Translations under genes and position numbers: made by a program | The notes under the pieces: generated by a model | Seen by the model: the letters and a program-made list of their open reading frames with translations, nothing else | Databases searched by the model: none | Told to the model about the DNA's origin: nothing | DNA from: Salaquimonas sp. | GTDB lineage: Bacteria > Pseudomonadota > Alphaproteobacteria > Rhizobiales > Rhizobiaceae | NCBI GenBank assembly: GCA_028289365.1 | Contig: JANQQM010000038.1 | Location: forward strand, 51,115-115,114 | Direction: 5' to 3' | Length of the DNA: 64,000 nt | Part shown: positions 17,263-43,510 of the stretch, piece after piece | Layout: every line of letters starts with the position of its first letter | Position numbering within the stretch: position 1 is the stretch's first letter

Positions 17263-17538
17263 ATCATCGCCTGCCGGCGCTGTTGGTAAACTTGTGGTTT
17301 TGATGTTACAGGCTTGGTTAGCCTGGTTGTATCAAGCAGGAATGCTACCAAAATTGCGCGTAAAGCGATAGCAATTATCGCTAAAATCCAGTAGTGTGAA
17401 ATCGGTGAGACGCGGCCCTGACGGCTAGTTCGTTCTTGTATTGCGGGCCAAGAATCGCAGAAATTGCGGGGAATTTGTGCATTGAATTCGCTGGAACCAG
17501 GGATACCACGGCAAAATCTGCCTGCCGAGGCCGGTGGC

Positions 17539-19842
17539 ATGTATCAGCCCCCCTCGCCCTATATGCATTCCCAACCCTATCCTGGTTATGCTCCGCCAGA
17601 AGCGGAAGAAGAAAACGGTTTTGATCCGCTAAAACTGCTTTGGTTTGTGGTTCATTACCGGTGGCTAATCGCGGTTTGTCTTATCGTCGGCCTGATCAGC
17701 GGCGTGGTGCTGACCATGCTGCAGACACCGCTTTATCGTGCTGCTGCAAATCTTGAGATTGTGACAACAGGCGCCAAAGTTATCCAGGACCTTGAAGCCG
17801 TTGTGCAGACGAGCGACATGCGTACGTTCGAGAATGCACGCGTAAAGATGAAGAGCCGCGACCTGGCGCGCCGCGTGGTCTACGAGTTAAATCTGAGTGA
17901 AGACGAGACATTCCTTGCGCCTACCCCGACTTTCTCCCTGAGCAATCTGATAAACCGGGCGCTTGGAACCAGCCGGGAGGCAGACATAGAAGGGCTAACC
18001 CCGGAACAACGGGAAGCGCGGGCTGTCGGACTTGTCCAGGCAAATCTTGCCATCGCCCTTGTCCGAAACACATCGATCCTGAATATCAGCTTTAGCCACG
18101 CTTCGCCTGAGCATGCGGCCATGGTCGCAAATCAGGTAGCGCGGAGCTATATCGATCAAACGGTCGACAAAACCAGCGAAACCTCGGATCTAGCCAGGCA
18201 GTTCATCCAGGAGCAGGTGATTGAAACCAAGGCCAAATTACAGGAATCCGAAGCAGCACTTGTTGCTTATGCAAAAGAAGCCGGAATTACAGTTACCGGA
18301 AGCGACGCCTCCCTGATTTCGGAAAACATATCGAAGATCAATGCCGCCCTTGGCCAGGCAATTCAGGACCGTCTCGATGCGCAACGCGATGTCGAACAGG
18401 TGCGGGCAGGAAATGCCGGCTCGCTGCCTCAGGTATTCGAGAGCGAGTCCATCCAGACAACCAAACAGAAAATTGCCGAATTGAGAGCCACCTACCAGGA
18501 AAAGCTCAATACGCTGAAACCTGGTTTTCCCGAGATGATCAGGCTCAGTTCGCAAATAGGTGAGTTGCAAAAGCAGGTGGATGCAGAAGTCGCGTCTATC
18601 GCTCGTGCAGTGGAAATCAAGTTTGAACAATCCAAGGAAAAGGAAACAGCACTCAAGGAAGAATTGGCGCAGCTGGAAGCTGAACAAAGCACCTTTCAGG
18701 ACAAAAATATCCAATACACGATCCTGAAGCGCGAGGTCGATTCAAATCGCTCGCAATATGACACATTGATCAACAAGTTGAATGAAGTTGGTGTGGGGTC
18801 GGAGCTACGCTCAAGCAATGCCTCCATCGTAGATTTGGCAGTTATGCCGGGCAGGCCTTACACACCAAACATGAACAGAAACCTGATGCTTGCAATGGTT
18901 CTGTTTGCTGCTTTTGCGGCTGGCATTATCTACCTGCTTGAACTGATGAATAATACATTTGCTGTACCTGACCAGATCGAATCCGAGCTTAAACTCCCTG
19001 TCCTGGGCGTAATCCCGTTCGTAGATCAGGAAGAGCTCCATAATGCATTTTCCGACAATAAATCGTCTGTATCGGAAGCATATCGATCGCTTCGAACGTC
19101 GATCCAGTTCACTGGAACCGAAAATGCGATGCGGACGATATTGGTGACATCATCAGAACCGTCGGAAGGCAAGTCATCAACGGCCTACAAGCTGGCTTGC
19201 GACTTTGCAGCATTGGGAAAACGTGTTCTGATTGTCGATGCGGACTTGAGAAAACCGCGAATGCACCGGATTTTCAATATTTCCAACACGATGGGGCTTA
19301 GCAACCTGCTTTCAAATGTTGTTCGAAAAGGCGATGTCAGTTCACTATTCCAGGTCACATCTGTACCTAACGTAACGGTGCTATCTTCGGGGACAATTCC
19401 GCCTAACCCGGTCGACCTGCTCATGTCTTCGCGCATGGGTTTGACGCTTAGCTATTGTGCCAAACAATATGATCTGGTGATCGTCGATTCACCCCCTGTC
19501 ATGGGACTGTCGGACTCGCCAATTCTGAGTCGCCAAATGGATGCAACCTTGCTTGTTGTGGCAGCGAAACAGGTAACCCGCAAGGCTGCCAAAACAGCGC
19601 TTGCCAGATTAAATGCGGCGGGCGGGAATGTTGTAGGCGCTGCGTTTACCCGCTTCGCGGTCGATAAGCTCGACTACAATTACGCCTATCGTTATATGCA
19701 ATATAACTATTACAGCTATGACACCAATCCTGCACAGCTGGAGAACCATGCTACACAAAACGCAAATGCGCCCGCTCCAAACGTCAGGCGCACTGGTCCT
19801 GTTGCTGCTTTGTTTGATCGCTTCATGCCTGGTCCTTCTTGA
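17539..19842 (+). CDS. Polysaccharide co-polymerase PCP-2a with C-terminal tyrosine autokinase (Wzc/ExoP-like), copy 1
   Basis: ATG 17539 is preceded by GAGG. It has two TM segments flanking a long coiled-coil region. Kinase motifs are Walker A SEPSEGKSSTAYKLA, VLIVDADLRKP and DLVIVDSPPV. The Tyr cluster is DYNYAYRYMQYNYYSYD. Confidence 0.9.
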   Translation: MYQPPSPYMHSQPYPGYAPPEAEEENGFDPLKLLWFVVHYRWLIAVCLIVGLISGVVLTMLQTPLYRAAANLEIVTTGAKVIQDLEAVVQTSDMRTFENARVKMKSRDLARRVVYELNLSEDETFLAPTPTFSLSNLINRALGTSREADIEGLTPEQREARAVGLVQANLAIALVRNTSILNISFSHASPEHAAMVANQVARSYIDQTVDKTSETSDLARQFIQEQVIETKAKLQESEAALVAYAKEAGITVTGSDASLISENISKINAALGQAIQDRLDAQRDVEQVRAGNAGSLPQVFESESIQTTKQKIAELRATYQEKLNTLKPGFPEMIRLSSQIGELQKQVDAEVASIARAVEIKFEQSKEKETALKEELAQLEAEQSTFQDKNIQYTILKREVDSNRSQYDTLINKLNEVGVGSELRSSNASIVDLAVMPGRPYTPNMNRNLMLAMVLFAAFAAGIIYLLELMNNTFAVPDQIESELKLPVLGVIPFVDQEELHNAFSDNKSSVSEAYRSLRTSIQFTGTENAMRTILVTSSEPSEGKSSTAYKLACDFAALGKRVLIVDADLRKPRMHRIFNISNTMGLSNLLSNVVRKGDVSSLFQVTSVPNVTVLSSGTIPPNPVDLLMSSRMGLTLSYCAKQYDLVIVDSPPVMGLSDSPILSRQMDATLLVVAAKQVTRKAAKTALARLNAAGGNVVGAAFTRFAVDKLDYNYAYRYMQYNYYSYDTNPAQLENHATQNANAPAPNVRRTGPVAALFDRFMPGPS

Positions 19843-21088: not shown

Positions 21089-22354
21089 GTGATCCTGGCC
21101 GCCATGATCCTGGGCGGCGGGACCAGCCAGTATATCTGGACAGACAACCTGTTGCAGATTTTGATGTTGCCATGCCTTTTCCTGGGCATAGTGAGCATCA
21201 GTTCCACCCGCCTTGAGTGGCCTTCGCAGCTTCTGGCAGTCGGCATATTGCTGTTGATATTCCTTCAGTTCTTGCCGGTGATACGGGAATCCCCCACTCC
21301 GGAATTATTACCCACAACATCCGGATGGGCTTTTTACTCGCTTTCTCCTTCAAACAGTCTGGAAGCCGGACTGTTTGGAATTTCGATCCTCGGTTTTGCG
21401 CTGTTTGTCTCCCGCTTGTCAGATCTTGCGCAGGAACGGTTGTTGCGATTCCTGTTCCTGGGGCTGTTCCTCAATGCGCTGATCGGCATCATTCAATTGT
21501 CCTTCGAACGCCGGGAGGTGATCACAGACCTCCTGCCCTTCAACATGAATGTCGGCGTATTTGCCAATGAGAACCATTATTCGACCCTGTTTTTCCTGAC
21601 CATCCCACTGCTGGCCTATCTTGCGCTGGTACGGTGGAAGAAGCCGTTGTCCTATCTGCTGTTTTCCAGCCTGCTTGTGTTTATCCTGTTTGCTGTAGGC
21701 TCCCGTGCCGGGATGTTCATTTCATCGGGTCTCGCAGTCTTCTGCTTTGTATGGTTCAGCCTCAATCTGTCTTCGCGAATTGCACGGTTGGGACTGATTG
21801 GCGCAGCGGCATTCGCCTTGATAATGATCGTTACTTTCTTCCCATTGGACGAAATTCTCGCCGGTGATTTGAGATCGGTAATCTTTGCAAACACCATGCG
21901 TGCCATCTCCGACAACTGGCTGGCCGGTACCGGGCTTGGAAGCTTTGTCTTGATCTACCCGTCCTATGAGGCCCGAGAGCAGGTCCTGCAGACCTATATC
22001 AATCATGCCCATAACGACTATATGGAGCTTGTTCTTGAAACCGGCATTTTCGGGATTGTGCTGATCGTCGGCTACTACGCTGTCATCTTGCGCAATTTCA
22101 TGCATTCGCGGCTGGCTGAAGCTGCGTTCATTTCAATCATGGCGGTCAGCCTGCATTCGCTTGTCGATTATCCTCTGCGGACGATGGCGATTGCGGTTCC
22201 CTTTGCCCTTCTCAGCGCCATTATCCTGTCCACCAAGCCGCACATTCTGGACCAGCGACGCGAGATGGAGCGGCAGGAAGCGCAAAGGCAATTCGAATCC
22301 GGCTCATCGGCAGAATATGGCACGCTCGAAGCGGAGCAATTTTTTGATCGCTGA
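21089..22354 (+). CDS. O-antigen ligase / Wzy-type polymerase family membrane protein
   Basis: About 10-12 TM helices. The periplasmic loop motif YINHAHNDYMELVLETGIFG is characteristic of the O-antigen-ligase (Wzy_C) domain. Confidence 0.8.
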   Translation: MILAAMILGGGTSQYIWTDNLLQILMLPCLFLGIVSISSTRLEWPSQLLAVGILLLIFLQFLPVIRESPTPELLPTTSGWAFYSLSPSNSLEAGLFGISILGFALFVSRLSDLAQERLLRFLFLGLFLNALIGIIQLSFERREVITDLLPFNMNVGVFANENHYSTLFFLTIPLLAYLALVRWKKPLSYLLFSSLLVFILFAVGSRAGMFISSGLAVFCFVWFSLNLSSRIARLGLIGAAAFALIMIVTFFPLDEILAGDLRSVIFANTMRAISDNWLAGTGLGSFVLIYPSYEAREQVLQTYINHAHNDYMELVLETGIFGIVLIVGYYAVILRNFMHSRLAEAAFISIMAVSLHSLVDYPLRTMAIAVPFALLSAIILSTKPHILDQRREMERQEAQRQFESGSSAEYGTLEAEQFFDR

Positions 22355-22365
22355 CGAAGATCCGT

Positions 22366-23475
22366 TTATTGCAGGCCCTTGATTGCAGCGAGGTTTCTGC
22401 TCAGGAATTGCCTGATCCGCATTGGCGAAAGAAGCCCGGACAAGAATTGGCGACGGGCGGCAGGACCGCTGGACAATCTTCCCCATATCCACGCAAAAAT
22501 GGAAGCCAGCATGGCTAATCGGTGCCGACCTGGTTCGGCTGTCAGATCAAGCGTCGTTTGTACCCAATTTTCTGCTTCAACGCTCGTTGAATCTATTGGA
22601 TTTTCTGCCTCAAGCACATTGCAAGACAATTCAATAAATGACTGAAAATATTGTGATAATTCTGCTTCATCAAATCTGGCGGACGCTTCCAGAATCCCGT
22701 CTTTCCCGAACTTCGCAAACATTCTTGCATAGTCCGCGACATCGCGAAGCAAGACCAGATTTGAGGAATACCGGCCGCTATCGATCTGCGCGTGGCTGAC
22801 AAGATGGCATATGCGATCGACGGGCGCCGGTGCCCTCAAAGCCGGATCAAGGCCGGATACGGCATTTTGAAATAGTTCCTGCGGCGGAAGAATTCCCAAG
22901 GCCGGACTGGCGGAGGCGGCAGTATGCAACTCGATCGCGGTAAGTTCACCGGCACGCCAAAGTGCCGGCGCATGCCGCATGGTGCGATCATAGGCAAGAT
23001 CATCATCGGTATAGCCATTGGATTTCAGGATATTTATTGCCTCATCAATCCGGTCTTCAGGCACCAGGACGTCCAGATCACTCAAGATGCGGTCTGCGGG
23101 ATCATCGTAGATTGGAGTAACAAATTCCGTGGCCCCCTTTAGTGCAATGGTCGGAATTCCATCACGCTGAAGCAGGTTTGAAGCTTCCGTCAATTGATCT
23201 GCGAGCCGTTTGTTGCGCTCCCGGTTCTGCTCACGCAGATGCCGGAAAAACCCCATGACTTCAGGATCAAGGCAATCTGCGATCTGACCGTGTTCAAATG
23301 CCCTGGGGATGAAATTGGCAATTGAGTGCGCCGTCGCCAGCCGAACCAGTTGCTGGGTATCGGCCTTGCGTAGCTCTTCTCGATCTTTGGTGTCGATCGA
23401 GTTTCCCAATGCGCTACGCATTAGAACAAGAAGGCATTTTACAGAATGGCGACGCATTTTCCGGCTTGATGTCAT
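22366..23475 (-). CDS. NTP_transf_5-type nucleotidyltransferase-fold protein, copy 1
   Basis: ATG at complement 23475 forms an ATGA overlap with the stop of the upstream kinase gene. The motif region is LLQRDGIPTIALKGATEFVTPIYDDPADRILSDLDVLVPEDRIDEAINILKSNGY. Confidence 0.75.
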   Translation of the reverse strand: MTSSRKMRRHSVKCLLVLMRSALGNSIDTKDREELRKADTQQLVRLATAHSIANFIPRAFEHGQIADCLDPEVMGFFRHLREQNRERNKRLADQLTEASNLLQRDGIPTIALKGATEFVTPIYDDPADRILSDLDVLVPEDRIDEAINILKSNGYTDDDLAYDRTMRHAPALWRAGELTAIELHTAASASPALGILPPQELFQNAVSGLDPALRAPAPVDRICHLVSHAQIDSGRYSSNLVLLRDVADYARMFAKFGKDGILEASARFDEAELSQYFQSFIELSCNVLEAENPIDSTSVEAENWVQTTLDLTAEPGRHRLAMLASIFAWIWGRLSSGPAARRQFLSGLLSPMRIRQFLSRNLAAIKGLQ

Positions 23476-24599
23476 GCCACCAATTCCTGCAGAACCGCTG
23501 CGGCATCTTCGCCGGTCCCGTACCTGAATGAAAATGCCGGAATGTTCTGACACAAGCCAACCATTGACCGGATGCTGTTATTGTGTCCGCAAGCCCGGCT
23601 GCCAGCTGCAGTCAGCCGGTGGAGGGCTTCAAGCTCATCGATTTGGGTCAAATTCGAGCCGTCAAATTCTGCTCGAAATTCCGGAAAGCAAAGATGGGTG
23701 GCTTTGTGCCAGCTCTGATCCGAATTAGCCTGCCAATAGCGAAAACCATATTCATCGGCATCCGGCAAAGGTGGATGTCCATTGTCTTTCAATTGCCGAT
23801 CCAGGATCTCGTGGCTACCCGATTTGATGCTGATATTTGCAGATAATCCAAACACGTAGCCGCCGCTCGACGATAGCGCAATCAGATCATCGCCCAGATA
23901 GGTTCCTCCCGTCATTACAAGTTGCGCCATTAATGTCGACTTGCCCGAACCGCTGGTACCGGAAAGAAGCAAGGTGCCCTGCCCCAGGCGGACCGCACTT
24001 GCGTGTAGTACAGCACCTACCTCACCGGGCCCCAAAGCGGTCTCCAGCAATGCCTGCAAAAACATGTGGCGACAGCCGGCAAAATCCTCACAGGACCAGT
24101 AGTGTTTGCCGTTCACCGCGACGAGAAAACTTCCATCGGTCGCAATCAGATCAACAACATCGGAAACTGCATCGTCCTCGTCATCCGTCAGAAGCGGTTC
24201 GAGGAGCCGGTGCAATACGGAACCGGCGGCCAAATCGTTACACCGAACAAAGACCGTGTTTTCGCCCAGTTTGATGCAATGGTTCCAGCAAAATTTGCCT
24301 TGCAGTCTTGCACCAGCCAGTAGCGTCACATGTTTGCCTGAGAACAGTCCGGCATCCGTCCAATGAGCCAGCATGGCATCAAAATCTGTTTCGACCCTGG
24401 CGCGATCCTGCTCCAACAACCGGGAAAGCCGTTCCACAGCTTGTGCCTTGTCGGCGGATTGCTGATAGGCAGCCAACATCAGCCGCGCGGTTTCGTTCAA
24501 AAGGACGATTGAACCATTTTCGGTCGAGTGGCCGATTGTATGACCACCAAAGGGCACCAGCTCTATGGCCTGTGCACTGGATTGCCGCTGATCAGACAT
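23472..24599 (-). CDS. PqqD/RRE-like domain fused to an HPr-kinase-C-like P-loop kinase (HprK-related kinase), copy 1
   Basis: The N-terminal SIVLLNETARLMLAAYQQ...DFDAMLAHWTDAGLF is PqqD-like. The C-terminal LHASAVRLGQGTLLLSGTSGSGKSTLMAQLVMTGGTYLGDDL is an HprK-type P-loop followed by an acidic motif. I chose ATG at complement 24599; a TTG at 24653 is also possible. Confidence 0.75.
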   Translation of the reverse strand: MSDQRQSSAQAIELVPFGGHTIGHSTENGSIVLLNETARLMLAAYQQSADKAQAVERLSRLLEQDRARVETDFDAMLAHWTDAGLFSGKHVTLLAGARLQGKFCWNHCIKLGENTVFVRCNDLAAGSVLHRLLEPLLTDDEDDAVSDVVDLIATDGSFLVAVNGKHYWSCEDFAGCRHMFLQALLETALGPGEVGAVLHASAVRLGQGTLLLSGTSGSGKSTLMAQLVMTGGTYLGDDLIALSSSGGYVFGLSANISIKSGSHEILDRQLKDNGHPPLPDADEYGFRYWQANSDQSWHKATHLCFPEFRAEFDGSNLTQIDELEALHRLTAAGSRACGHNNSIRSMVGLCQNIPAFSFRYGTGEDAAAVLQELVA

Positions 24600-24752
24600 T
24601 GCATCACCGAGTTTGGTAAGACTGGCCTCTAAAGACAAAGCCAATTCGGCCAAAACCGTTTATCAAACCGGTTGATCAGTCCCCTCAATTACGGGATTTG
24701 GCCCAGAATCGACCATAGGTTCGATATGGTTAATGAACTCTTTACAAACGTC

Positions 24753-27170
24753 CTAGGCTGCCCTGGTCTGGCGCTTTTGCGGCCGTTCGGAATTGCCCTT
24801 GGTTTCAGATGCAGGCGTCAGTTTCTGTGCGGTGTATTGTACTGCACCGGAAAAGCCGTTTCGAATGAGCTGCAGATCCCGTTCCAGCCAAGGCGCGTAA
24901 TGCTTGACAGTTCCGGCAGGCGGCGTTTCCACGGTCTCGTCGTGGCTATAGGTCAGATGACGATAGGCATAGGCATAGCTGAGGCGCTCCATGGAGAGGC
25001 ATGTCAGCGCTGCGCCGACTACATTGGCTCCCGCCATGTCCAATCTGGCCAAAGCAGCCTTTGCCGACTTGCGCGTCACCGATTTGGAGGAGACGACCAG
25101 CATGGTCGCATCGACCTGACCGCTCAGGATTTGGGCGTCTGCCAGATCGAGAATTGGCGGACTGTCGATGATAATCAGGTCGAAATATCTCGAACAACAC
25201 CTTAGTAGTGCACCCATTTTCGACGACGACAGCAGGTCAGCCGGATTTGGTGGTGGTGTCCCGGCTGACAGGAAGGTAACGCCCGGGAATTTCGTGCGCT
25301 GGAACAGGTCCAGCACCTGACTTTCATCAATCACATTGGACAGAAGGTTGCTAAGACCCGGACCCTCAGACGCCGAATAGATTTCATGAAGCCGCGGTTT
25401 GCGAAGATCGGCATCGATGACCAGCACGCGGCGACCAAGCGCAGCAAAATCCTGGGCGAGCTTGTAAACCGTTGTCGACTTGCCTTCGCCCGGCTGTGAT
25501 GATGTCACCAACAGGCTTTTTACGTCCTGTTCAACACCAGTAAAGCGCAGGGAAGATCGAAGGCTGCTGTAATTCTCAGAAATCTTGGATCGTGGGTTTT
25601 CCAGATCCTTGATCAAGGTTTCCTCATCGTTTTCGGGAATGGTTCCAAGAACCGGCAGTTTCAGTTCGGATTCCACACGTTCAGGTGTATCGAACTTGTT
25701 GCTGATCAACTCGATCAGGTAGATCAATGCTGCGCAAAGTGCTCCGAAAAATACCAATGCCATCAACATGTTACGTTCAAGGCGCGGTGTAAACGGCGCA
25801 CCCGGCGTGCGTGCATAGTCGATAATCGAGGCGTTGGTGTTCTTGAGTTCGGAACCAATGCCTACTTCGCTCAATTGAGCAATCAGCTGATCATATTGGG
25901 TGCGGTTTGAGTCCACCTCGCGCTTGAGGATCGTGTACTGGATATTCTTGTCCTGGAATTCCCGCTGTTTGGTTTCCAGCTCACCCAGTGCCCGGCGGAT
26001 ACTCTCTTCCTTCTGTGCTGCCAGTCCGGCCCGTGTTTCGACCGTTGCACCAATCGTGGCAGTCTCTTCCTTGATCTGACGCTGCAATTCCCTGATTTGT
26101 GCCTGGATCTTGCGCATTTCAGGATGATCGGGTTTCAGGGTGCTGCGCTTTTCTTCATAACCAGCCCTGAGCTCGGCAATTTTCTGCTTGGTGGTCTGAA
26201 TTGTCTCGCTCTCATAGACGGCCGGCAGGGATGTGATCTTGCCTGCGTTTGCCTGCTCCAGGTCGCGATCGGCAGCCAACCGTTCCTGAATTGCTTCGGC
26301 AAGCGCTTCATTTAGTTGCCCGATATTGTCTACAATCAACGAGGCATCATTTCCGGTGATGGTAATATTTTGCGCCTTTGCGTAGTTTACGAGCGCCTTT
26401 TCCGAATTTTGAAGCTTTGCCTTAGCTTCAACCACGCGCTGGTTAAGAAATTGACGTGCGAGATCGGAAGATTCACTCGTTTTATCAACGGTATAGTCGA
26501 TATAGCTACGCATCGCCTGATTGGCGACGAGTGCCGTGTATTTGGGGACTTCATGCGTAAACGAGACCCGGATAACGGAGCTGTCGCGGATGATGCTGAC
26601 GGACAATCCGCCACGGACGAGACCTACAGCCGCAGCTTCCCGTTCTTCTTTGGTCCAATCTGCCAGGCTGTTTTCCGATTCAGCACCAAATGCACGATCG
26701 ACCAGGTTCATCAGAGAAAATCCCGGCTTTGGCGCAATGAATGCGTCTTCATCGCCAAGGTTCAATTCGTGAACGATGCGCCGCGCAATATCTTCGCTTT
26801 CAAACTTGATGATCACATTTTCCATCGCGGAAAAGCGATCATATTGCGAAACGACTTCAAATTCCTCGAAGACCCGCGGCGTTGGGGTCTGGATTTCGAG
26901 ACGTGCTGAAGCACTATAGAGCGGCGTCTGCGACCAAGTATTAATTAGTCCGGCCGATATGCCGAGAATTACAAACCCCAGGATCAACCAACGATATTGG
27001 ATAGCATAGGAAATCAGCTTCAGCGGATCGAAACCAAATCCATCGTCTGCGATATCGTCTTGCATACGCGAGGTACGCCCGTTGTTTGACTGCAAGCCCT
27101 GCAGTTCCGACAGCGTCAGCATTACACATGGTTCTTCTTTCATGTGGCTGCCTGTATTGATCAAATTCAT
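24753..27170 (-). CDS. Polysaccharide co-polymerase PCP-2a with C-terminal tyrosine autokinase, copy 2
   Basis: 805 aa and clearly paralogous to copy 1 (FDPLKL, DKNIQYTILKREVDSNRTQYD, ESELKLPVLG). Kinase motifs are Walker A SQPGEGKSTTVYKLA, VLVIDADLRKP and DLIIIDSPPI. The Tyr patch SYAYAYRHLTYSHD is shorter and is followed by a long non-Tyr tail. Confidence 0.9.
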   Translation of the reverse strand: MNLINTGSHMKEEPCVMLTLSELQGLQSNNGRTSRMQDDIADDGFGFDPLKLISYAIQYRWLILGFVILGISAGLINTWSQTPLYSASARLEIQTPTPRVFEEFEVVSQYDRFSAMENVIIKFESEDIARRIVHELNLGDEDAFIAPKPGFSLMNLVDRAFGAESENSLADWTKEEREAAAVGLVRGGLSVSIIRDSSVIRVSFTHEVPKYTALVANQAMRSYIDYTVDKTSESSDLARQFLNQRVVEAKAKLQNSEKALVNYAKAQNITITGNDASLIVDNIGQLNEALAEAIQERLAADRDLEQANAGKITSLPAVYESETIQTTKQKIAELRAGYEEKRSTLKPDHPEMRKIQAQIRELQRQIKEETATIGATVETRAGLAAQKEESIRRALGELETKQREFQDKNIQYTILKREVDSNRTQYDQLIAQLSEVGIGSELKNTNASIIDYARTPGAPFTPRLERNMLMALVFFGALCAALIYLIELISNKFDTPERVESELKLPVLGTIPENDEETLIKDLENPRSKISENYSSLRSSLRFTGVEQDVKSLLVTSSQPGEGKSTTVYKLAQDFAALGRRVLVIDADLRKPRLHEIYSASEGPGLSNLLSNVIDESQVLDLFQRTKFPGVTFLSAGTPPPNPADLLSSSKMGALLRCCSRYFDLIIIDSPPILDLADAQILSGQVDATMLVVSSKSVTRKSAKAALARLDMAGANVVGAALTCLSMERLSYAYAYRHLTYSHDETVETPPAGTVKHYAPWLERDLQLIRNGFSGAVQYTAQKLTPASETKGNSERPQKRQTRAA

Positions 27171-27438
27171 ACCGGACCCATCCCATTGAACTCAATCGGG
27201 GTTTGTGTGTTGCCTTCAGGTCCCCGATTTGACCTCTTAAACGACGGTTCAATTCCTTGACGAATTACCGAAGTTTTTAACAATCTCGTCAAACAATAGG
27301 ATCTCGCTCATAAATTTTCGCTAATATACGTGGTAAACAAATTATGGATATTTGGCTGCCGCTGCCGCGGCCAGGTATCTAACGCTATTTTACTTGTAAT
27401 TTTTCTTGAAAATCCAAATTCAAATAAGCACAAAAATG

Positions 27439-27457
27439 TTATGTGCAGTGCACATAA
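27439..27457. promoter_or_regulatory. 19-bp palindrome in a divergent A+T-rich promoter region (candidate operator)
   Basis: TTATGTGCA-G-TGCACATAA has perfect 9-bp arms. It lies between PCP copy 2 (minus strand) and the plus-strand kinase/PqqD/NTase operon. Confidence 0.4.
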
Positions 27458-27556
27458 ATGATCTTGTTGATACAACCATTAATACGTTCAGTTTTTATCT
27501 CTGCGCGACTATGGTTATCTTCACGTACCGGGCTTACAAAAAAAGAATGCGAAAAA

Positions 27557-27871
27557 ATGTCCCGCGCCTACTTTGAAGATTTATTAAGTGACCCGAGATG
27601 GACGAGCGAAGAAAGAGCGTTCATTGAATTTGTTTGCGGGCCAACACCTTTCATTGTCGAATTTCTAGATAGCGAGCTGAAAAAGGAACGCATTACTGAA
27701 ATCAAGGACTGGTGCACCGAGAAATATGGTGACCCGTCCGATCCGTTCCGCGGTAAAACCGGTGATTGGCGGATTTGCTCAATTTCGGACCAAAAATCGA
27801 TCTGTTTTCGGCTTGAGGAACAATTGTCCGATTTCCTGACCTATCGAAAGAAACTTAAACAATATTCATGA
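27557..27871 (+). CDS. Hypothetical small protein
   Basis: About 104 aa from ATG 27557 (ORF track TTG at 27458). It is A+T-rich, has no recognised motif and no clear RBS. Confidence 0.35.
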   Translation: MSRAYFEDLLSDPRWTSEERAFIEFVCGPTPFIVEFLDSELKKERITEIKDWCTEKYGDPSDPFRGKTGDWRICSISDQKSICFRLEEQLSDFLTYRKKLKQYS

Positions 27872-28009
27872 GTTAGTGGCATCGCATTTGTCATTGATCT
27901 GCTGATACATCTGCCTTCTTACACGCAAGTTTGAATCATCCCGCATCTTGCCTGATGGTGTCTTAAACATGCGAATCATCTAAATTGCCGCATCGAGACA
28001 ACCCAAGAT

Positions 28010-28975
28010 ATGGTCTCGGTTGCACAAAGGCTTCAGCAAATGCCTAGATTTTCGTTATCCGCGAAATGGCATACGCCATGCTATGAGAAACTCTCCGCGC
28101 TCGAATGGACCAGCGGATTTTCGATTGCCTCCCATGGCGTCAGGATTGGGGTGCGGACGTCCGATCCGTCTATTGTCCCGATTTTGAAGGACAGCCTTCC
28201 AGCCAGTTGTGAACTGTGCGAGGCGGAAGCCGTTGATACGGTATTGTCAGTCGTATTGGGGGGGCGGGATAAAAAAACACGGACCCGCCGGTACCACCTG
28301 GTCTATCATAATCATTCGGTATTCTCGCGCTCGCATCGGCTTGAGGAAATCATTGACGGTTTCAAATCCTGTCTTGCAATGAACCTGGCGACATTGGCGA
28401 GGCGCCGTGTTTTCATTCATGCCGGTGCTGTTGGCTGGCAGGGCAAGGCAATTGTCTTTCCCGGTAAATCCTATAGCGGCAAGAGCACCTTGGTGCTGGA
28501 ACTGATCAAGGCCGGGGCGAGCTATCTTTCCGATGAATTTGCAGTGCTGGATTTCAAGGGCCGGGTTCACCCCTATCCCAAACCAATCTCCCTGCGTAAG
28601 ACAGCCAACGGCAAACAAATGGACGTGTCGATTTCGTCTATTGGCGGAACGACGGCAGATGCTCCGTTAACATTGGGGCTCGTTGTGGACACGCAGTTTC
28701 AGCCCAATGCGCTCTGGCTCCCCCGGATGCTTTCACCCGGCGAAGGATTGCTTTCGCTCCTGGCGAATTGCGCAGCCGCAAGATATGCGCCGGAGCGCTG
28801 CCTGCGGGCTATGGAACGGGCGTCACAAAACGCACAGTTCATTGCCTCACCGCGCGAGGAAGCAGCCAGCGTGGTGCCGGAGATATTGGATCTATTGCGT
28901 ACCGAAACAGAAACTGACGAATTCGCCGGTGTTGTTCAAGGTTCCGCGGAAAGCGCTCATTCCCTGGGATTGTGA
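28010..28975 (+). CDS. HPr-kinase-C-like P-loop kinase (HprK-related kinase), copy 2
   Basis: 321 aa. IHAGAVGWQGKAIVFPGKSYSGKSTLVLELIKAGASYLSDEFAVLD aligns with the copy 1 kinase core. Confidence 0.75.
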   Translation: MVSVAQRLQQMPRFSLSAKWHTPCYEKLSALEWTSGFSIASHGVRIGVRTSDPSIVPILKDSLPASCELCEAEAVDTVLSVVLGGRDKKTRTRRYHLVYHNHSVFSRSHRLEEIIDGFKSCLAMNLATLARRRVFIHAGAVGWQGKAIVFPGKSYSGKSTLVLELIKAGASYLSDEFAVLDFKGRVHPYPKPISLRKTANGKQMDVSISSIGGTTADAPLTLGLVVDTQFQPNALWLPRMLSPGEGLLSLLANCAAARYAPERCLRAMERASQNAQFIASPREEAASVVPEILDLLRTETETDEFAGVVQGSAESAHSLGL

Positions 28976-29463
28976 TGCCAATGCCATCCGAAATCAGACC
29001 GAAAGCGCGCACTGCTCGCATCGTGGTTCGCGAACTTGGGAGCGAGGTACTGATCTATGATCTGGACAGTCATGATGCGACATGTCTGAACGCAGCGGCA
29101 AGCAAGGTCTGGAAGCTCTGTGACGGTAAGAGAACCATTGGCGAGATATCTGCAGAACTGGAAAATGAGGCGTGCGGTGGCAGTGCCGAAGAAAACGTTT
29201 TGACGGCGTTAGAAAATTTCATTCAGGCGAATCTTCTGGAAGAGGTTCCCGAAATTGAGACGTCAGATGGAGAAAATCGCAGAGATGTTCTTCGTGGGAT
29301 CGTCGCGTCCGCAACCGCCATTCCCCTTGCCACAACCATCTCGGTGCCGGCCATGGCTCAAATCGCTTCGTGTCTTGGCAGGCGCGAACGGTGCAGGCGA
29401 TTTTTCGGTCCGGAATGTTGTCCGGGACTTGAGTGCCGCCGCCGCAGATGCAGACCGGAATGA
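28972..29463 (+). CDS. PqqD/RRE-like domain protein with internal Tat-like signal and C-terminal Arg-rich six-Cys peptide
   Basis: 163 aa. Its start overlaps the kinase stop (GTGATG). The PqqD-like part is ARIVVRELGSEVLIYDLDSHDATCLNAAASKVWKLCDGKRTIGEISAEL. This is followed by NRRDVLRGIVASATAIPLATTISVPAMA, then QIASCLGRRERCRRFFGPECCPGLECRRRRCRPE. Confidence 0.7.
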   Translation: MMPMPSEIRPKARTARIVVRELGSEVLIYDLDSHDATCLNAAASKVWKLCDGKRTIGEISAELENEACGGSAEENVLTALENFIQANLLEEVPEIETSDGENRRDVLRGIVASATAIPLATTISVPAMAQIASCLGRRERCRRFFGPECCPGLECRRRRCRPE

Positions 29464-29499
29464 CAACAAGGACATGCGAGACCTGCCTTGATCGCCCCA

Positions 29500-30630
29500 A
29501 TGCCAAATGACCCGAAATATACCAATGCTCAGATCATCGCGGAGCTGCTGTCCGGCGCATGGCGAAATGAAGTGGATCCGGCGTGGATTTCTCCCGAAGC
29601 ACTGCATGACATCCACCCGATTGTCCTTTCGACCGGCGCAGGCCCCTTATGCTGGCGGCGCATCGAAACCGTGCCCGAATTGCGGGAGACGGATGCCGGT
29701 CAACTTTTGCGTAAAAGCTATCTGATGACTGCCCTTCGCGGCCAAATGCTTGAGGAAACGCTTGAGCGCATTTGCGAGGTGCTTGACGAGTTCGAGGTCA
29801 TCCCTTTGATCTTCAAGGGTTGGTCAGTTGCACAATATTATGGTGATCCTGATTTACGCCCGTTTGGCGACATCGATCTTTGTGCTCCGCCAGATCGCTA
29901 TTTAGAGACCGCAGGTTACCTTTCACAATACGCGACAACACCACCAGATGGCGGCCGCAAGCGGCAGTTTGTTCCCGGCAAGAAAACCACAGTGTTTGGG
30001 TTTGACTGCGAATTACCGGGAAATGTAACCCAGATAGATCTGCATCGCGATCTTCAGCGCTTTCGATTTGATCAGCTTGAAGCGGTCTATGCGCGTTCTC
30101 GACTGATTCCAGTCAAGTCCCGCCAAATCCGGGTGCTGTCACCGGAAGATCATTTGCGGCTGCTTTGCCTGCATTTTCTCGACCATGGTGGCTGGCGACC
30201 AATCTGGCTCTGCGATATTGCCGCATTGCTCGAGGCACTGCCCGATGATTTCGATTGGGATCTCTGTCTCGGCGACGATCCCCTCACCCGTCATTGGGTG
30301 GAGATCGCGGTCGCGCTGGCCTGTCAACTTTTATGCGCTAATCCCAAAACCAGGCCTCAATTGCCGGCTTTGCCCTCCTGGCTAATCACCGAAGTTCTGG
30401 AACAGTGGCGCCGTCCGTTTGAGGCCCATATGCCCCGAACGAGATTTTTGCAGGTGCTTTTGCATTATCCGCTTGAGATAGTTTCTGAAGCTGCGGCTCG
30501 CTGGCCAAACAAGATCAGGGCAACTTGTGCAACAAAATCCAGGTTCGACGATAGACCGCGCTGGCCATATCAGCTATCTGAATTTTCTCGGCGTGCTTTC
30601 TCCTTTTTTGAGCTATCGGGTGCGCGCTGA
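29500..30630 (+). CDS. NTP_transf_5-type nucleotidyltransferase-fold protein, copy 2
   Basis: ATG at 29500 (ORF track TTG at 29488). The motif region is LDEFEVIPLIFKGWSVAQYYGDPDLRPFGDIDLCAPPDRYLETAGYL. Confidence 0.75.
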   Translation: MPNDPKYTNAQIIAELLSGAWRNEVDPAWISPEALHDIHPIVLSTGAGPLCWRRIETVPELRETDAGQLLRKSYLMTALRGQMLEETLERICEVLDEFEVIPLIFKGWSVAQYYGDPDLRPFGDIDLCAPPDRYLETAGYLSQYATTPPDGGRKRQFVPGKKTTVFGFDCELPGNVTQIDLHRDLQRFRFDQLEAVYARSRLIPVKSRQIRVLSPEDHLRLLCLHFLDHGGWRPIWLCDIAALLEALPDDFDWDLCLGDDPLTRHWVEIAVALACQLLCANPKTRPQLPALPSWLITEVLEQWRRPFEAHMPRTRFLQVLLHYPLEIVSEAAARWPNKIRATCATKSRFDDRPRWPYQLSEFSRRAFSFFELSGAR

Positions 30631-39325: not shown

Positions 39326-39705
39326 TTATAGATATTGAAAATACAAAAGACAGATGATTGAATTCAAGAAATACAAATGGGCTCACCCAAAGCCAATTGA
39401 TCCATGTTGCTAGTATGGGTTTAGACCAGACACGGAACTTTATCTTTAATCATCTTGTAATAAGGGAACATGCAAATTCGATGCTGGCGCATATTTGCTA
39501 AGTAGCAGTTTCAAAGCTGAATATAGGACAATCGATAGAATAAAATCTCTTCTGGAAATTAAATTTTTGAAATCGCTATTTGAAACGTAAATAAAATTTA
39601 AAAATTCTTGGAAATTTCAATAGTTAATAATTAAAAATTATTCCGATCTGAAATTTGAACGGTTCATTGTGTTGTCAAAGACTAAACGAGAACTCTAAGA
39701 AACTG

Positions 39706-41541
39706 ATGTGTGGCATCAACGGCATCTTTGCCTACCATTATGCGGCAAATCCGGTAGATCGTTCCGAGCTTTTGCGTACTCGCGACCACATGGCTGCACG
39801 TGGACCAGATGGAAAGGGTGAGTGGATTGCAAATGACGGCCGTGTCGGCTTCGGTCATAGGCGCCTTGCAATAATTGACCTCACCGATGGCGGCGCCCAG
39901 CCGATGGCCAGCGACGATGGTTCACTAATCATTACCTTCAACGGCGAAATCTACAATTACCGAGAACTTCGCCAAGATCTCGAGGCCGAGGGTCATGTCT
40001 TTCGAAGCAACTCTGATACCGAGGTCCTTCTGCATCTTTATGCTGTAAAAGGCGAGGCAATGGTCCACGAATTGCGCGGTATGTTCGCCTTCGCGATCTG
40101 GAATAACAAGCGTGGCGAAGTGTTTCTGGCGCGAGATCCTTACGGCATCAAGCCCCTCTATTATGCCGATGATGGCTGGACGCTGCGCTTTGCATCCTCC
40201 GTCAAGGCTTTGATGGCAGGCGGCCGTATATCGACCGATCCCGAACCGGCCGGTTGGGTTGGCTTCTACTTATTCGGCAGCGTACCGGAGCCCTTTACCA
40301 CCTATCGAGAAGTGCGCGCGCTTCCCGCCGGCGCAACACTCCTCGTAGATGCACAGGGCCCGCAAATGCCGCACCGCTATTTCTCGATTGCCGCGATCTG
40401 CGCGCAGTCGGACGGTGAGTTGGCGACTTCTTACAAAGTACACAACGCGCAGAAACAAACGCGCGCTGCACTCATAGACAGCGTGCGCGCTCACCTGGTA
40501 GCGGATGTCCCGGTTGGCGCATTCCTGTCTGCAGGTATCGATTCAGGTGCGCTAGTTGGCTTGATGCGCGACGTAGGGCAAGAAGATGTCACTACAGTAA
40601 CGTTAGCGTTTGATGAGTTTGAGGGTCAGCATGATGATGAAGCGCCAATAGCTGCAGAGGTTGCCCACCATTTTGGCACACGCCATCATCGACGACTGGT
40701 GACAGAACGCGAGTTTCAAGACGATCTGCCGCTAATTCTGGAAGCAATGGACCAGCCCAGTATTGACGGCCTTAACTCCTGGTTTGTAAGCAAAGCGGCA
40801 CGGGAGCTGGGTCTGAAGGTCGCGATTTCCGGACTCGGCGGCGATGAATTGTTCGGTGGCTACCCCTCCTTTAGCGATATCCCCCGTTGGCACCGTCTGC
40901 TAGCGGTTCCTTCGCGCATGCCGTTCCTGGGCGAGGCCGCACGTTGGGCAATAACGGCGGGGCGTACCTTTTGGCCCGGGTTGAACCCCAAGAGCGCGGG
41001 CCTCATTAAATATGGTGGCAGCTTTGCAGGAGGATATCTCTTGCGGCGCGGTTTGTTTATGCCTTGGGAGTTGGAAATGGTCATGGACCCCGCCATGGCA
41101 CGCGATGGTCTACAACGACTAGAGCCGCTTCACCATATCCGACAGGCTTTGGACCCAATGCCGCAGTCGAGTTTTGCAAAGGTAGCGACACTCGAGGCCT
41201 CGCTTTATATGCGAAACCAATTACTCCGTGACACCGACTGGGCCAGCATGGCCCATTCGCTGGAAGTCCGAGTACCACTCGTCGACAGTCATCTTCTGGT
41301 GACCCTAAATGCTGCCCGTCGCGCCGCAGGCGGCCTTGACGGCAAGACTATTCTGGCCATGAGCCCCGCAAAATCCTTGCCGGACACGGTGATACATCGC
41401 CTCAAGACAGGATTCACGACGCCGATCGCGACCTGGTTGCAACGGGATAAACGGGCAGAACGCTGGAAGAAAAGGTCGTCCCTAACATCGTCCTATTGCC
41501 CATGGGCCCGACGCTGGGCTTATAGTGTAGGGGCAGCGTGA
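39706..41541 (+). CDS. asnB: Asparagine synthase (glutamine-hydrolysing) family amidotransferase
   Basis: The start was set at ATG 39706 so that Cys2 is the Ntn nucleophile (MCGINGIF). It has GHRRLAIIDL, the FNGEIYNY GATase region, and the synthetase PP-loop-like LSAGIDSG. Confidence 0.85.
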   Translation: MCGINGIFAYHYAANPVDRSELLRTRDHMAARGPDGKGEWIANDGRVGFGHRRLAIIDLTDGGAQPMASDDGSLIITFNGEIYNYRELRQDLEAEGHVFRSNSDTEVLLHLYAVKGEAMVHELRGMFAFAIWNNKRGEVFLARDPYGIKPLYYADDGWTLRFASSVKALMAGGRISTDPEPAGWVGFYLFGSVPEPFTTYREVRALPAGATLLVDAQGPQMPHRYFSIAAICAQSDGELATSYKVHNAQKQTRAALIDSVRAHLVADVPVGAFLSAGIDSGALVGLMRDVGQEDVTTVTLAFDEFEGQHDDEAPIAAEVAHHFGTRHHRRLVTEREFQDDLPLILEAMDQPSIDGLNSWFVSKAARELGLKVAISGLGGDELFGGYPSFSDIPRWHRLLAVPSRMPFLGEAARWAITAGRTFWPGLNPKSAGLIKYGGSFAGGYLLRRGLFMPWELEMVMDPAMARDGLQRLEPLHHIRQALDPMPQSSFAKVATLEASLYMRNQLLRDTDWASMAHSLEVRVPLVDSHLLVTLNAARRAAGGLDGKTILAMSPAKSLPDTVIHRLKTGFTTPIATWLQRDKRAERWKKRSSLTSSYCPWARRWAYSVGAA

Positions 41542-42635
41542 CGATGAACGGAACCGATATACATGTTTCTGCGTTGGTAACCGACGCGTTCGGTGGCTTC
41601 GGCGGTATTGCGCAATACAACCGTGATTTTCTTACCGCCCTGGCGCAGACCAATTGCGTTGAACGGATTACTGTGTTGCCTCGCCTAGGCGATATACCGA
41701 TCGAAACGCTGCCGACAAAGCTTCGCCAACACCCTGCCGCAGGAAACAAGTTGGCCTACGCTCTCAATGCGTTCGCCGCACTTGGGCCGATCGGGCGTGT
41801 AGACACGATCTTCTGTGGCCACATTCACATGATGCCAATCGCCGCGCCTCTCGCCCGATTGTCTGGCGCTTCGCTCTGGCTGCAGATCCACGGGATAGAG
41901 GCCTGGGAACGGCCGTCGCGCCTATTGCAATGGTCTGTTCGCCAAGCCAATCTGGTCACAGCCGTCAGCCGCCACACCCGCCGGCGTTTCCTATCATGGG
42001 CCGGAATTGCCCCAGAAAAGGTCAAAGTCCTTCCTAACACGATCCATGAAAAGTTTAGCTCCGGCCCGAAATCAGCCAATCTGCTCGATCGCTACGACCT
42101 TCATGGAAGCAAAGTACTGCTGACGGTCTCTCGCCTCGCTGCGTCCGAGCGTTACAAGGGGCACGACCGGGTAATCGAAGCCCTGCCACTCGTGCTCGCT
42201 GTTTGTCCGCAAATGCGCTATCTGATTGCGGGCGATGGTGACGACCGACCGCGGCTTGAAGAACTTACTAAACGTCACGGAGTGACCGACAAGGTTGTCT
42301 TTGCTGGTCATGTGCCCGAGGACGAGCTAGTAGATCATTTTCGACTCGCCGATGTGTTCGTCATGCCGAGCCTGGGCGAAGGTTTTGGGATTGTTTTCCT
42401 GCAGGCAGCCGCCTGCGGTCTGAATGTTATTGCAGGTAATCTTGACGGAAGCGTGGATGCTTTGGCCGATGGGCGCCTGGGGCGACTCATTGACCCGCTC
42501 GATGAAGACGCCCTTGCCGAGGCAATCATAATTGCGCTAAGCGAAAAAAATCTGCAATCGGCAGAAGTTGTTGATCGATTTAGTCCCGGCCGATTTGGGC
42601 TTGAGGTTAAAGGTCTTCTCCGGCATGTCGTCTGA
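41538..42635 (+). CDS. Glycosyltransferase family 4 (GT-B)
   Basis: It has ADVFVMPSLGEGFGIVFLQAAACGLNVIAGNLDGSVDAL (E-x7-E region). GTG 41538 overlaps the asnB stop; ATG 41544 is an alternative start. Confidence 0.85.
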   Translation: MTMNGTDIHVSALVTDAFGGFGGIAQYNRDFLTALAQTNCVERITVLPRLGDIPIETLPTKLRQHPAAGNKLAYALNAFAALGPIGRVDTIFCGHIHMMPIAAPLARLSGASLWLQIHGIEAWERPSRLLQWSVRQANLVTAVSRHTRRRFLSWAGIAPEKVKVLPNTIHEKFSSGPKSANLLDRYDLHGSKVLLTVSRLAASERYKGHDRVIEALPLVLAVCPQMRYLIAGDGDDRPRLEELTKRHGVTDKVVFAGHVPEDELVDHFRLADVFVMPSLGEGFGIVFLQAAACGLNVIAGNLDGSVDALADGRLGRLIDPLDEDALAEAIIIALSEKNLQSAEVVDRFSPGRFGLEVKGLLRHVV

Positions 42636-43506
42636 AAATGCGATGAAATCGCAACCTACATCCGAATCTAACGGCACTACCGCGCAGCGACTTATTATCC
42701 TGGAGCCAGGCCGCTCAGAGCGCAATTATTGGCACGATCTCTGGCACTATCGCGAGCTTTTCTTGATCCTCGCCTGGCGCGACGTGTCCGTACGCTACAA
42801 GCAAACGGTAATCGGGTTTGCTTGGGCCATCATTCGACCTTTCCTGACGATGGTGGTATTCACGGTCATATTTGGCAATATCGCCAAGCTACCCTCGGAC
42901 GGGGACGTGCCTTATCCGATCCTCGTATTTGCTGGCATGCTCCCCTGGTTCTTGTTTTCCGGGGTTTTGTCGGATTCGTCAAACAGCCTCGTAGGAAACG
43001 CCAACCTGATTTCCAAAGTTTATTTCCCGCGGCTCGTGATCCCGACCTCCACCGCAGTAGTTGCCTTGGTCGATTTTCTGATCAGTTTCTCGATGCTAGC
43101 GCTTCTAATGGTTTGGTTCGGCTTCCTTCCGAACTGGCAGATTATCTTCCTGCCTTTGTTCATTGTACTGGCTATTCTTGCCAGCATCGGCCCTGCGCTC
43201 TGGATCGCCGCGCTGAACGTCAAATACCGAGATTTTCGTTATATCATACCCTTTATTGTTCAGTTTGGTCTCTATGTCTCGCCTGTGGGGTTCTCGAGCG
43301 CCGTCGTACCGGAGAAGTGGCGGCTGTTCTACAGCCTCAATCCGGTGGTCGGCGTCATTGATGGATTCCGCTGGTGCCTGCTCGGCGGTCAGAGCCCGAT
43401 TTACTGGCCGGGCTTTCTCCTGAGCCTTGTCGTGGTAGCCTTCTTCCTCTGGTTCGGTGTCCGCTATTTCCGCAAAACAGAGCGCACCTTCGCGGACATG
43501 GTGTAG
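42625..43506 (+). CDS. wzm: ABC-2-type polysaccharide/O-antigen export permease
   Basis: ATG 42625 overlaps the GT4 stop. It has YRELFLILAWRDVSVRYKQTVIGFAWAIIRPFL and six TM segments typical of Wzm. Confidence 0.85.
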   Translation: MSSENAMKSQPTSESNGTTAQRLIILEPGRSERNYWHDLWHYRELFLILAWRDVSVRYKQTVIGFAWAIIRPFLTMVVFTVIFGNIAKLPSDGDVPYPILVFAGMLPWFLFSGVLSDSSNSLVGNANLISKVYFPRLVIPTSTAVVALVDFLISFSMLALLMVWFGFLPNWQIIFLPLFIVLAILASIGPALWIAALNVKYRDFRYIIPFIVQFGLYVSPVGFSSAVVPEKWRLFYSLNPVVGVIDGFRWCLLGGQSPIYWPGFLLSLVVVAFFLWFGVRYFRKTERTFADMV

Positions 43507-43510
43507 TCAG

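Follow-up and report, generated by a model that had tools for sequence, protein, structure and literature searches.

In a 64,000-nucleotide stretch of DNA from Salaquimonas sp. (GenBank assembly GCA_028289365.1, contig JANQQM010000038.1, positions 51,115 to 115,114; hereafter the window), three adjacent genes encode an HprK-related P-loop kinase, a fusion protein in which a PqqD-like RiPP recognition element (RRE) is followed by a signal-like segment and a cysteine-rich tail, and an NTP_transf_5 nucleotidyltransferase-fold enzyme (NTase). RiPPs are peptides that the ribosome makes and that are modified after translation. The three genes recur together in several phyla, an arrangement that lies far beyond chance. 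We place about even confidence in the reading that this cassette is a self-contained RiPP-type peptide-maturation pathway, in which the putative precursor carries its own recognition domain. The RiPP-type logic and the enzyme families are known, and the precursor architecture and its genomic context appear to be new.

Table 1. Features of the cassette, its second copy and neighbouring genes in the window (aa, amino acids or residue numbers)
Feature	Position	Strand	Details
HprK-related P-loop kinase	28010..28975	+	321 aa; predicted cytoplasmic, no signal peptide seen
Fusion protein (RRE/PqqD domain, signal-like segment, cysteine-rich tail)	28972..29463	+	163 aa from GTG 28972, 162 aa from ATG 28975
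RRE (PqqD-like) domain of fusion protein	29011..29235	+	about aa 14-88; three strands then three helices
Twin-arginine signal-like segment of fusion protein	29275..29358	+	aa 102-129: NRRDVLRG, hydrophobic (h-) region IVASATAIPLATTISVP, AMA (AxA)
Candidate core peptide of fusion protein	29359..29460	+	aa 130-163: QIASCLGRRERCRRFFGPECCPGLECRRRRCRPE; six Cys, very cationic
NTP_transf_5 nucleotidyltransferase-fold enzyme	29500..30630	+	376 aa from ATG; 380 aa from alternative in-frame TTG 29488
Copy 1: RRE/PqqD domain fused to HprK-related kinase	23472..24653	-	PqqD E=5e-6 (aa 44-103), Hpr_kinase_C E=0.002 (Pfam)
Copy 1: NTP_transf_5 enzyme	22366..23553	-	Pfam PF14907 E=3e-31
Wzy_C (O-antigen ligase/polymerase-like) membrane protein	21089..22354	+	Pfam Wzy_C
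Wzc-type chain-length determinant and tyrosine autokinase	24753..27170	-	NCBIfam eps_fam, Wzc
Other Wzc-type gene	17464..19842	+	NCBIfam eps_fam, Wzc

Layout and conservation of the three-gene cassette

A sequence-only reading of the window had placed the three open reading frames (ORFs) at 28010-30630, and all were found there on the same strand (Table 1). The GTGATG overlap and the 36-nt gap that it had described at the two junctions proved exact: the kinase stop TGA occupies 28973-28975, its A doubles as the first base of the ATG at 28975, and the GTG at 28972 lies directly upstream; the fusion gene ends at 29461-29463, exactly 36 nt before the NTase ATG at 29500. The fusion gene is translationally coupled to the HprK-family kinase gene. 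The 162-aa form of the fusion protein is recorded in both NCBI and Logan. A promoter and terminator scan of 27.1-31.1 kb was uninformative, since its counts were no different from shuffled expectation.

The kinase family comprises at least 494 database relatives and occupies at least 592 loci in species-representative genomes. These loci belong mainly to Acidobacteriota (Pyrinomonadaceae, Blastocatellia), with further carriers in Mesorhizobium, other Rhizobiales, Roseiarcus, Limibaculum, Methylomirabilis, Gemmatimonadota, Abditibacteriales, and one actinomycete genome. Linkage was counted over 82 non-redundant loci scanned with hidden Markov models built from family sequences. Kinase, fusion, and NTase genes occurred together at 44 of these loci, in the window's order and strand at 32 of the 44, and nine loci held kinase and fusion only. 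After the kinases were clustered at 65% identity into 41 lineages, a fusion gene was present beside the kinase in 35. The 29 loci that have no fusion gene were searched for an ORF with a signal and a cysteine-rich part but no PqqD domain, and none was found. With complete sets in several phyla, the three genes form a conserved cassette, as had been proposed. One acidobacterial locus departs from the usual layout (L079, 3779-6265): it carries the kinase, a divergent NTase on the opposite strand, and, where the contig ends, a PqqD protein of 99 aa that stands alone, and may be a split or lasso-type variant.

The best NCBIfam match of the kinase was HprK_rel_A (TIGR04352; E=5e-16, 58.6 bits against a cut-off of 200), followed by HprK_rel_B (8e-6) and hpr-ser (1.3e-5), both below cut-off; an acidobacterial relative reached 70.4 bits against TIGR04352. 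Alignment with 21 kinase relatives showed that H137, G157-K158 of the GK[ST] P-loop, and S174-D175 are invariant. Searches of the PDB by sequence with the kinase profile and the NTase returned nothing useful, and the kinase was placed by fold comparison only: its AlphaFold (AF2) model, with a predicted local distance difference test score (pLDDT) of 84.9, matched PEPCK and HprK/P structures in Foldseek (1kkl, 3tqf, 2qmh; E=1e-4 to 1e-6). The protein thus belongs to the HprK/P-type (PEPCK-like) P-loop kinase superfamily and is not an HprK/P orthologue, because its match to Pfam Hpr_kinase_C is weak and below cut-off (E=0.09, 12.7 bits against 33.3).

The NTase matched Pfam NTP_transf_5 (PF14907) with E=1e-30 and 107.4 bits against a cut-off of 31.2; Pfam assigns no chemistry to this family. 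K110-G111, D128-x-D130, and D184/H186 are kept in at least 91% of 74 family members and make up the Pol-beta-type NTase signature (G-[GS], D-x-D, and a third carboxylate). Both enzymes have intact catalytic residues and no signal peptides.

Architecture of the fusion protein

The N-terminal domain of the fusion protein matched Pfam PqqD (PF05402; E=2e-7, 31.7 bits against a cut-off of 23.4). Its AF2 model contains strands at residues 17-22, 25-30, and 35-39 and helices at 41-49, 56-66, and 72-85, with pLDDT values of 80-88. The top Foldseek matches in the PDB were the lasso-peptide B1 protein TbiB1 with bound leader peptide (5v1u/5v1v; TM-score 0.82, root-mean-square deviation 1.9 Å), followed by PqqD (5sxy) and then by the RREs of TruD, CteB, and SuiB. 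A disordered linker of about 12 residues joins this domain to the signal-like segment, within which AF2 places a strand at residues 120-124 with moderate to low confidence (pLDDT about 61).

The same architecture was present in every homologue examined, from 86% down to about 33% identity: a PqqD domain, a linker, an RR-hydrophobic segment with AxA, and a cysteine-rich tail. When 1.84 billion cluster representatives (50% identity clusters) were searched with a profile, 977 clusters were recovered at E<=1e-30 and 5,398 at E<=1e-10, the best 150 listed being near full-length. Counts of the RR segment were taken from 148 fusion representatives, and tail and residue counts from 145. Across the family, mean identity was 44% in the RRE, 43% in the signal-like segment, and 20% in the tail with cysteines excluded. 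Several loci (L002, L062, L071, and L054) carry two to four tandem fusion paralogs; within L002 and L062 these are 56-80% identical in the N-terminal part and 30-43% in the tail. On a 4-kb metagenomic contig (L002, 682-4066), a single NTase gene is ringed by four such paralogs with almost identical leaders and different cysteine-rich tails. A conserved leader joined to a variable core is also the pattern seen in RiPP precursors and secreted peptide families. The proposal that the PqqD protein brings its own candidate substrate was thus strengthened by the C-terminal extension in every homologue examined, the tandem paralogs, and the variable cysteine-rich tail. The makeup of the extension had gone unrecognised in that first reading: a twin-arginine signal-like segment followed by a knottin-like six-cysteine peptide, a combination that points to a secreted disulfide-rich product.

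R103, R104, P118, and P126 of the signal-like segment are invariant among the fusion homologues, and its family consensus is SRReliRrlGlAaAvALPvVtSIvAPtAAqA. An RR motif with a hydrophobic segment lies near residue 100 in 145/148 representatives, with S, T, or N before the RR in 128/145. When ten segments were excised and scanned, two (Mesorhizobium and Limibaculum) passed the NCBIfam model TAT_signal_seq (TIGR01409; 19.6 and 17.5 against 16.7 bits), and two more fell just below. A lipoprotein signal was also considered for an 'IASC' motif and was dropped for the family, since Thr is common at position -1. The residue preceding S/T-R-R is M, L, V, or I in 115/145 representatives, with G-M-S-R-R in many acidobacterial members; the window protein carries Glu there. 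This hydrophobic or Met position may be the vestigial start codon of a once-separate signal-peptide gene, or an internal initiation site.

The cysteines of the window tail are spaced C-x6-C-x7-CC-x4-C-x4-C (6,7,0,4,4). Across the family, the number of tail cysteines is even in 142 of the 145 representatives and six in 77; a C-x-C-x-CC framework occurs in 89, most commonly as C-x6-C-x5-CC-x3-C-x4-C, and Ser or Thr directly precedes the first cysteine in 104. The C-C-CC-C-C framework is shared with inhibitor-cystine-knot peptides such as spider toxins and the conotoxin O-superfamily. Pfam matches of the tails to such toxin families (Toxin_7, Toxin_18, Omega-toxin, Conotoxin_I2) range from weak to threshold-passing, and since the tails are bacterial these matches may reflect cysteine spacing alone and do not imply homology. 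The window tail matched Toxin_7 below cut-off (E=0.0055, 17.4 bits against 27), and double-unit tails with 12 cysteines at L044 (8902-9468, minus strand) and L046 (8888-9454, minus strand) passed the cut-offs for Toxin_18 and UPF0506. Only the terminal hairpin of the window tail is confidently modelled by AF2. That tail contains 10 Arg in 30 residues, and acidobacterial tails are near-neutral; by its composition the window tail appears defensin-like, or suited to binding acidic polysaccharide.

A few family members carry an additional self-cleaving module behind the tail: PT-HINT in two (P0140 and P0193; E=1e-21 and 9e-23) and a Peptidase_S74 intramolecular chaperone domain in another (P0201). 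These rare modules fit a released peptide.

A putative maturation pathway and its relation to known systems

In the pathway that we propose, the RRE would be a handle in cis through which both enzymes, kinase and NTase, engage the fusion protein. It may also hold the unusually conserved signal segment, in the manner of an RRE bound to a leader peptide or of a Tat (twin-arginine translocation) chaperone bound to a signal peptide. The two enzymes would modify a hydroxyl residue in the cytoplasm; by analogy with paeninodin and pseudomycoidin, this residue would first be phosphorylated, and a glycosyl or nucleotidyl group would then be transferred to the phosphate. As a candidate site, the conserved Ser/Thr immediately ahead of the first cysteine ranks best. 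The C-terminal part would then be translocated by Tat or Sec and cut after AxA, and once outside the cytoplasm its cysteines would become oxidised, yielding a small peptide that is both knotted and modified. This product probably works at the cell surface alongside Wzy/Wzc-dependent polysaccharide, in the window and in many other genomes. The closest precedent comes from lasso-peptide systems, in which a kinase phosphorylates a Ser of the precursor and an NTase places hexoses on the phosphate (PMC8498205); by analogy, a kinase/NTase pair could act on a peptide here as well.

Several observations weigh against this proposal. The AF2 model of the fusion protein was built on only 7 sequences and is of low confidence between residue 95 and the terminal hairpin (pLDDT 41-68). 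In nearly all members the RR motif (residues 95-116) comes after a folded domain rather than at the N-terminus, and a signal peptide about 100 residues into the protein is atypical for Tat. The window's own segment fell under the NCBIfam Tat cut-off, with only a weak formate_TAT match (E=0.11). The h-region is rather hydrophobic (mean Kyte-Doolittle value of 2.0 over 15 residues), so that Sec targeting or an uncleaved membrane anchor is possible. Export by either Tat or Sec, with the segment cleaved or uncleaved, is thus possible on sequence features. The tails have no conserved C-terminal Ser, the residue on which lasso kinases act, and the choice of the Ser/Thr before the first cysteine as target is a guess. 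At 26 of the 82 loci, kinase and NTase occur with no fusion gene within 8 kb, indicating that the enzymes can persist without an adjacent precursor. Finally, we infer modification of the fusion protein by the kinase and the NTase from conserved linkage and a precursor-like pattern only.

The internal position and hydrophobicity of the segment bear directly on a different reading of the fusion protein: an uncleaved single-pass membrane protein with its N-terminus inside, whose periplasmic knottin-like module would bind or sense a ligand such as polysaccharide while the cytoplasmic RRE recruits the enzymes, the whole being a small transmembrane device for signalling or anchoring and no precursor. 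The segment does follow basic residues, in keeping with the positive-inside rule; even cysteine numbers are expected of an extracytoplasmic domain, and the strongly cationic window tail could bind an acidic polymer. The two invariant prolines and the conserved AxA with small residues before the tail are, however, features of signal peptides rather than of anchors, and the Tat-signal model is passed by some relatives. Tail diversification among tandem paralogs and self-cleaving C-terminal modules also fit released products better than a membrane device. We therefore consider an anchored device improbable.

Among characterised systems, the nearest are the tailoring sets of phosphorylated and phospho-glycosylated lasso peptides, which employ the same three protein families: the paeninodin kinase PadeK, the pseudomycoidin kinase and nucleotidyltransferase, and a B1 RRE. 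The suggestion that the kinase/RRE/NTase set parallels the tailoring part of such clusters agrees with published work (PMC8498205), and the fold of the cassette RRE is closest to B1 (TbiB1). The cassette differs from these sets in four respects: it has no cyclase, B2 protease, or lasso-type precursor; its RRE and the candidate substrate are parts of one fusion protein; a signal-like segment precedes the candidate core, a peptide with six cysteines in knottin spacing; and the C-terminal Ser that lasso kinases require is not conserved.

The shared families and the B1-like RRE would also be expected of a decayed remnant of a phosphorylated lasso cluster that had lost its cyclase, protease, and precursor. 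This explanation is effectively refuted. Dozens of lineages and about a thousand 50%-identity clusters keep the cassette in the absence of lasso genes, all catalytic residues are intact, and the RRE has gained a conserved extension; to our knowledge, no lasso B1 protein carries such an extension. The one Asn-synthase-like gene of the window (39655-41541) scored 399 bits against TIGR01536 (cut-off 267) and 182 against the lasso cyclase model (cut-off 525), and by these scores is assigned as a true glutamine-hydrolysing AsnB. AsnB-like genes were found at 2/81 related loci, and no neighbour family of the B2-protease kind was recurrent across the 81. Pfam scans of the window ORFs from about 1 to 59.9 kb found neither a lasso B2 (transglutaminase-like) protease nor a short lasso-type precursor; ORFs past 59.9 kb were compared with PDB sequences only. 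The view that the cassette stands without lasso maturases accordingly held.

A further related entry is the 'HPr-rel-A system' of NCBIfam/TIGRFAMs, a computationally defined set that likewise pairs an HprK-related kinase (TIGR04352) with a PqqD family peptide chaperone (TIGR04353); no experimental work on it was found in the literature searched. Both window kinases, that of the cassette and that of a second copy described below, match TIGR04352 best among NCBIfam models and score far under its equivalog cut-off (58.6 and 51.9 against 200 bits). The window PqqD protein had no TIGR04353 match at E<=0.01, and the best member of the fusion family reached 22.5 bits against a cut-off of 35. The TIGR04353 name describes a stand-alone chaperone, whereas the cassette has a fusion of chaperone and signal peptide.

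Twin-arginine signals have dedicated cytoplasmic chaperones of the TorD, DmsD, and NapD type. The cassette segment likewise displays an S/T-R-R-x-hydrophobic-hydrophobic-basic motif, a moderately hydrophobic stretch, and AxA, and the idea in common is a cytoplasmic domain that holds the signal until the cargo is ready. The cassette differs in that the signal lies about 100 residues in, the putative holder is an RRE fold in cis, and there is no cofactor-containing cargo. Large protein-derived leaders are also known among RiPP precursors, in the NHLP and Nif11 leader families. These likewise combine a long conserved N-terminal part with a short, variable, cysteine-rich core and occur as tandem paralogs beside modifying enzymes; in the cassette, by contrast, the leader is itself an RRE fold with an export signal. 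RRE domains usually occur as proteins in their own right or in fusions with enzymes.

Neither full-text searches nor two RRE surveys (PMC7470986, PMC12710340) yielded an account of a kinase-RRE-NTase cassette standing alone, or of an RRE joined to a signal peptide and a cysteine-rich core. According to the later of the two surveys, 21% of PF05402 proteins exceed a discrete RRE in length and lack further annotation. The sequence-only reading had called the pathway undescribed. For the stand-alone cassette and the fusion this stands within the literature searched; it needs qualifying in that NCBIfam already names the HPr-rel-A system, to which the cassette proteins are sub-threshold relatives.

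A more specific and considerably bolder version may be formulated, which we regard as a long shot: the cassette would define a new RiPP-like class in which the precursor comes with an RRE of its own and with a twin-arginine export signal inside the chain, the Ser/Thr by the first cysteine is phospho-glycosylated or nucleotidylated by the cytoplasmic HprK-type kinase and the NTP_transf_5 enzyme before export, and the released knottin-like peptide serves at the cell surface as primer, anchor, or partner of a Wzy/Wzc polysaccharide. For instance, a neighbouring Wzy_C-type ligase might then attach glycan to the released peptide.

If the maturation pathway is real, a precursor that combines an RRE, an export signal, and a disulfide-knot core would extend RiPP logic. 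It would represent a very large peptide family, about a thousand clusters at 50% identity, prominent in soil Acidobacteriota. The pair of kinase and nucleotidyltransferase described for a few Firmicute lasso peptides would leave the lasso context, and two families with almost no biochemistry, the HprK-related kinase A-like proteins and NTP_transf_5, would acquire a genetically linked substrate. The repeated proximity to Wzy and Wzc genes raises the question of whether some exopolysaccharide systems use a small, modified, secreted peptide. Bacterial knottin-like scaffolds would, in addition, be of interest for peptide engineering.

Polysaccharide setting, second copy, and neighbouring genes

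When the window ORFs up to about 59.9 kb were scanned against Pfam and NCBIfam, a large polysaccharide locus emerged. It contains CpsB, a NusG-like protein, an initiating sugar transferase, Wza, two Wzc proteins, Wzy_C, ManC, GDP-sugar enzymes, many glycosyltransferases, and an ABC-2/Wzt pair. Clustering and Pfam naming of the genes around related kinases gave Wzy_C at 27 loci, Glycos_transf_4 at 20, Glycos_transf_1 at 12, Wzc-like proteins at about 9-10, and a TPR membrane protein at 42; the Wzc-like neighbours occur in Alphaproteobacteria, Acidobacteriota, Gemmatimonadota, and Methylomirabilis. A Wzy, Wzc, or glycosyltransferase gene lies within 8 kb of the kinase in 18/41 lineages from at least four phyla, including Alphaproteobacteria (the window, L040, and L041), Acidobacteriota, Gemmatimonadota (L084), and Methylomirabilis (L020). 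On this basis the association is real and recurrent. It is not obligatory: the three loci first compared have no polysaccharide setting, nor does Mesorhizobium L006, and both L006 and acidobacterial L004 are surrounded by unrelated genes. After the first three loci the polysaccharide context had been held to be an accident, a view that was dropped once the neighbours were clustered. The suggested link to polysaccharide export is therefore retained as a recurrent association and abandoned as a universal one.

This association lends weight to an alternative in which the kinase and the NTase have as their substrate a non-peptide component of the polysaccharide pathway, for example a sugar, the polymer, or a lipid-linked repeat unit, or else act on the Wzc/Wzy machinery itself, with the RRE fusion as an accessory or regulator. 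Beyond the markers in 18 lineages, the fusion-less kinase-NTase pairs stand directly after GT-Wzy-TPR genes, the kinase fold is common to PEPCK, a small-molecule kinase, and NTP_transf_5 is a family of unassigned chemistry. The fusion-less state is, however, essentially that of one recent clade: almost all such loci belong to a single Pyrinomonadaceae group, two members of which keep the fusion gene between kinase and NTase. Many complete cassettes lie far from polysaccharide genes, RREs bind peptides, and peptides are the substrates of the only relatives of the enzyme pair that have been characterised (PMC8498205). We consider action on a non-peptide substrate rather unlikely, although it is the strongest of the competing explanations.

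The RRE is also fused to the kinase in a second, divergent copy of the gene set in the window (copy 1, Table 1; the cassette being copy 2), which sits between Wzy_C and the second Wzc. Together with its homologues, this fusion supplies independent evidence that RRE and kinase work together, and it too speaks against a non-peptide substrate. The copy-1 kinase matched HprK_rel_A with E=6e-14 and 51.9 bits; its homologues are few (22 hits), are about 400 aa long, and carry PF05402. The two kinases are 39% identical over 49 aa only, around the P-loop, and the two NTases 27% identical over 73 aa. Recent duplication was ruled out, as only the P-loop and NTase motifs are in common, and the copies are distinct subtypes. 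No cysteine-rich precursor was seen beside copy 1.

Other neighbours of the cassette were recorded as well. Very large Peptidase_C25 (gingipain-type) surface proteins adjoin it at 17 loci in 13/41 lineages (for example, L003 715-7338 and L063 2836-5994) and might be leader proteases or unrelated neighbours. At about 29-42 related Pyrinomonadaceae loci (for example, L010 5947-7981), a conserved gene pair lies upstream of the kinase, between it and Wzy_C: one product is a secreted protein of 215 aa that has a Gly-rich membrane anchor at its C-terminus and matches no family, and the other is a membrane TPR protein of 440-475 aa.

Within the window, the cassette is preceded by an AT-richer intergenic stretch at 27200-28000 (GC content 0.47). 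An orphan ORF there (27458/27557-27871, 104-137 aa) was rejected as a cassette member, having no family match and no homologue in related loci. At 42568-44803 on the plus strand, an ABC-2 permease and an ATPase of the Wzt type, which has a Wzt_C domain, share the locus with Wza, Wzc, and Wzy parts, so that the locus appears to encode two export routes next to each other. The minus strand at 5569-6690 encodes a bacterial archaeo-eukaryotic release-factor-like protein (baeRF family 11, E=6e-56) that is unrelated to the polysaccharide locus.

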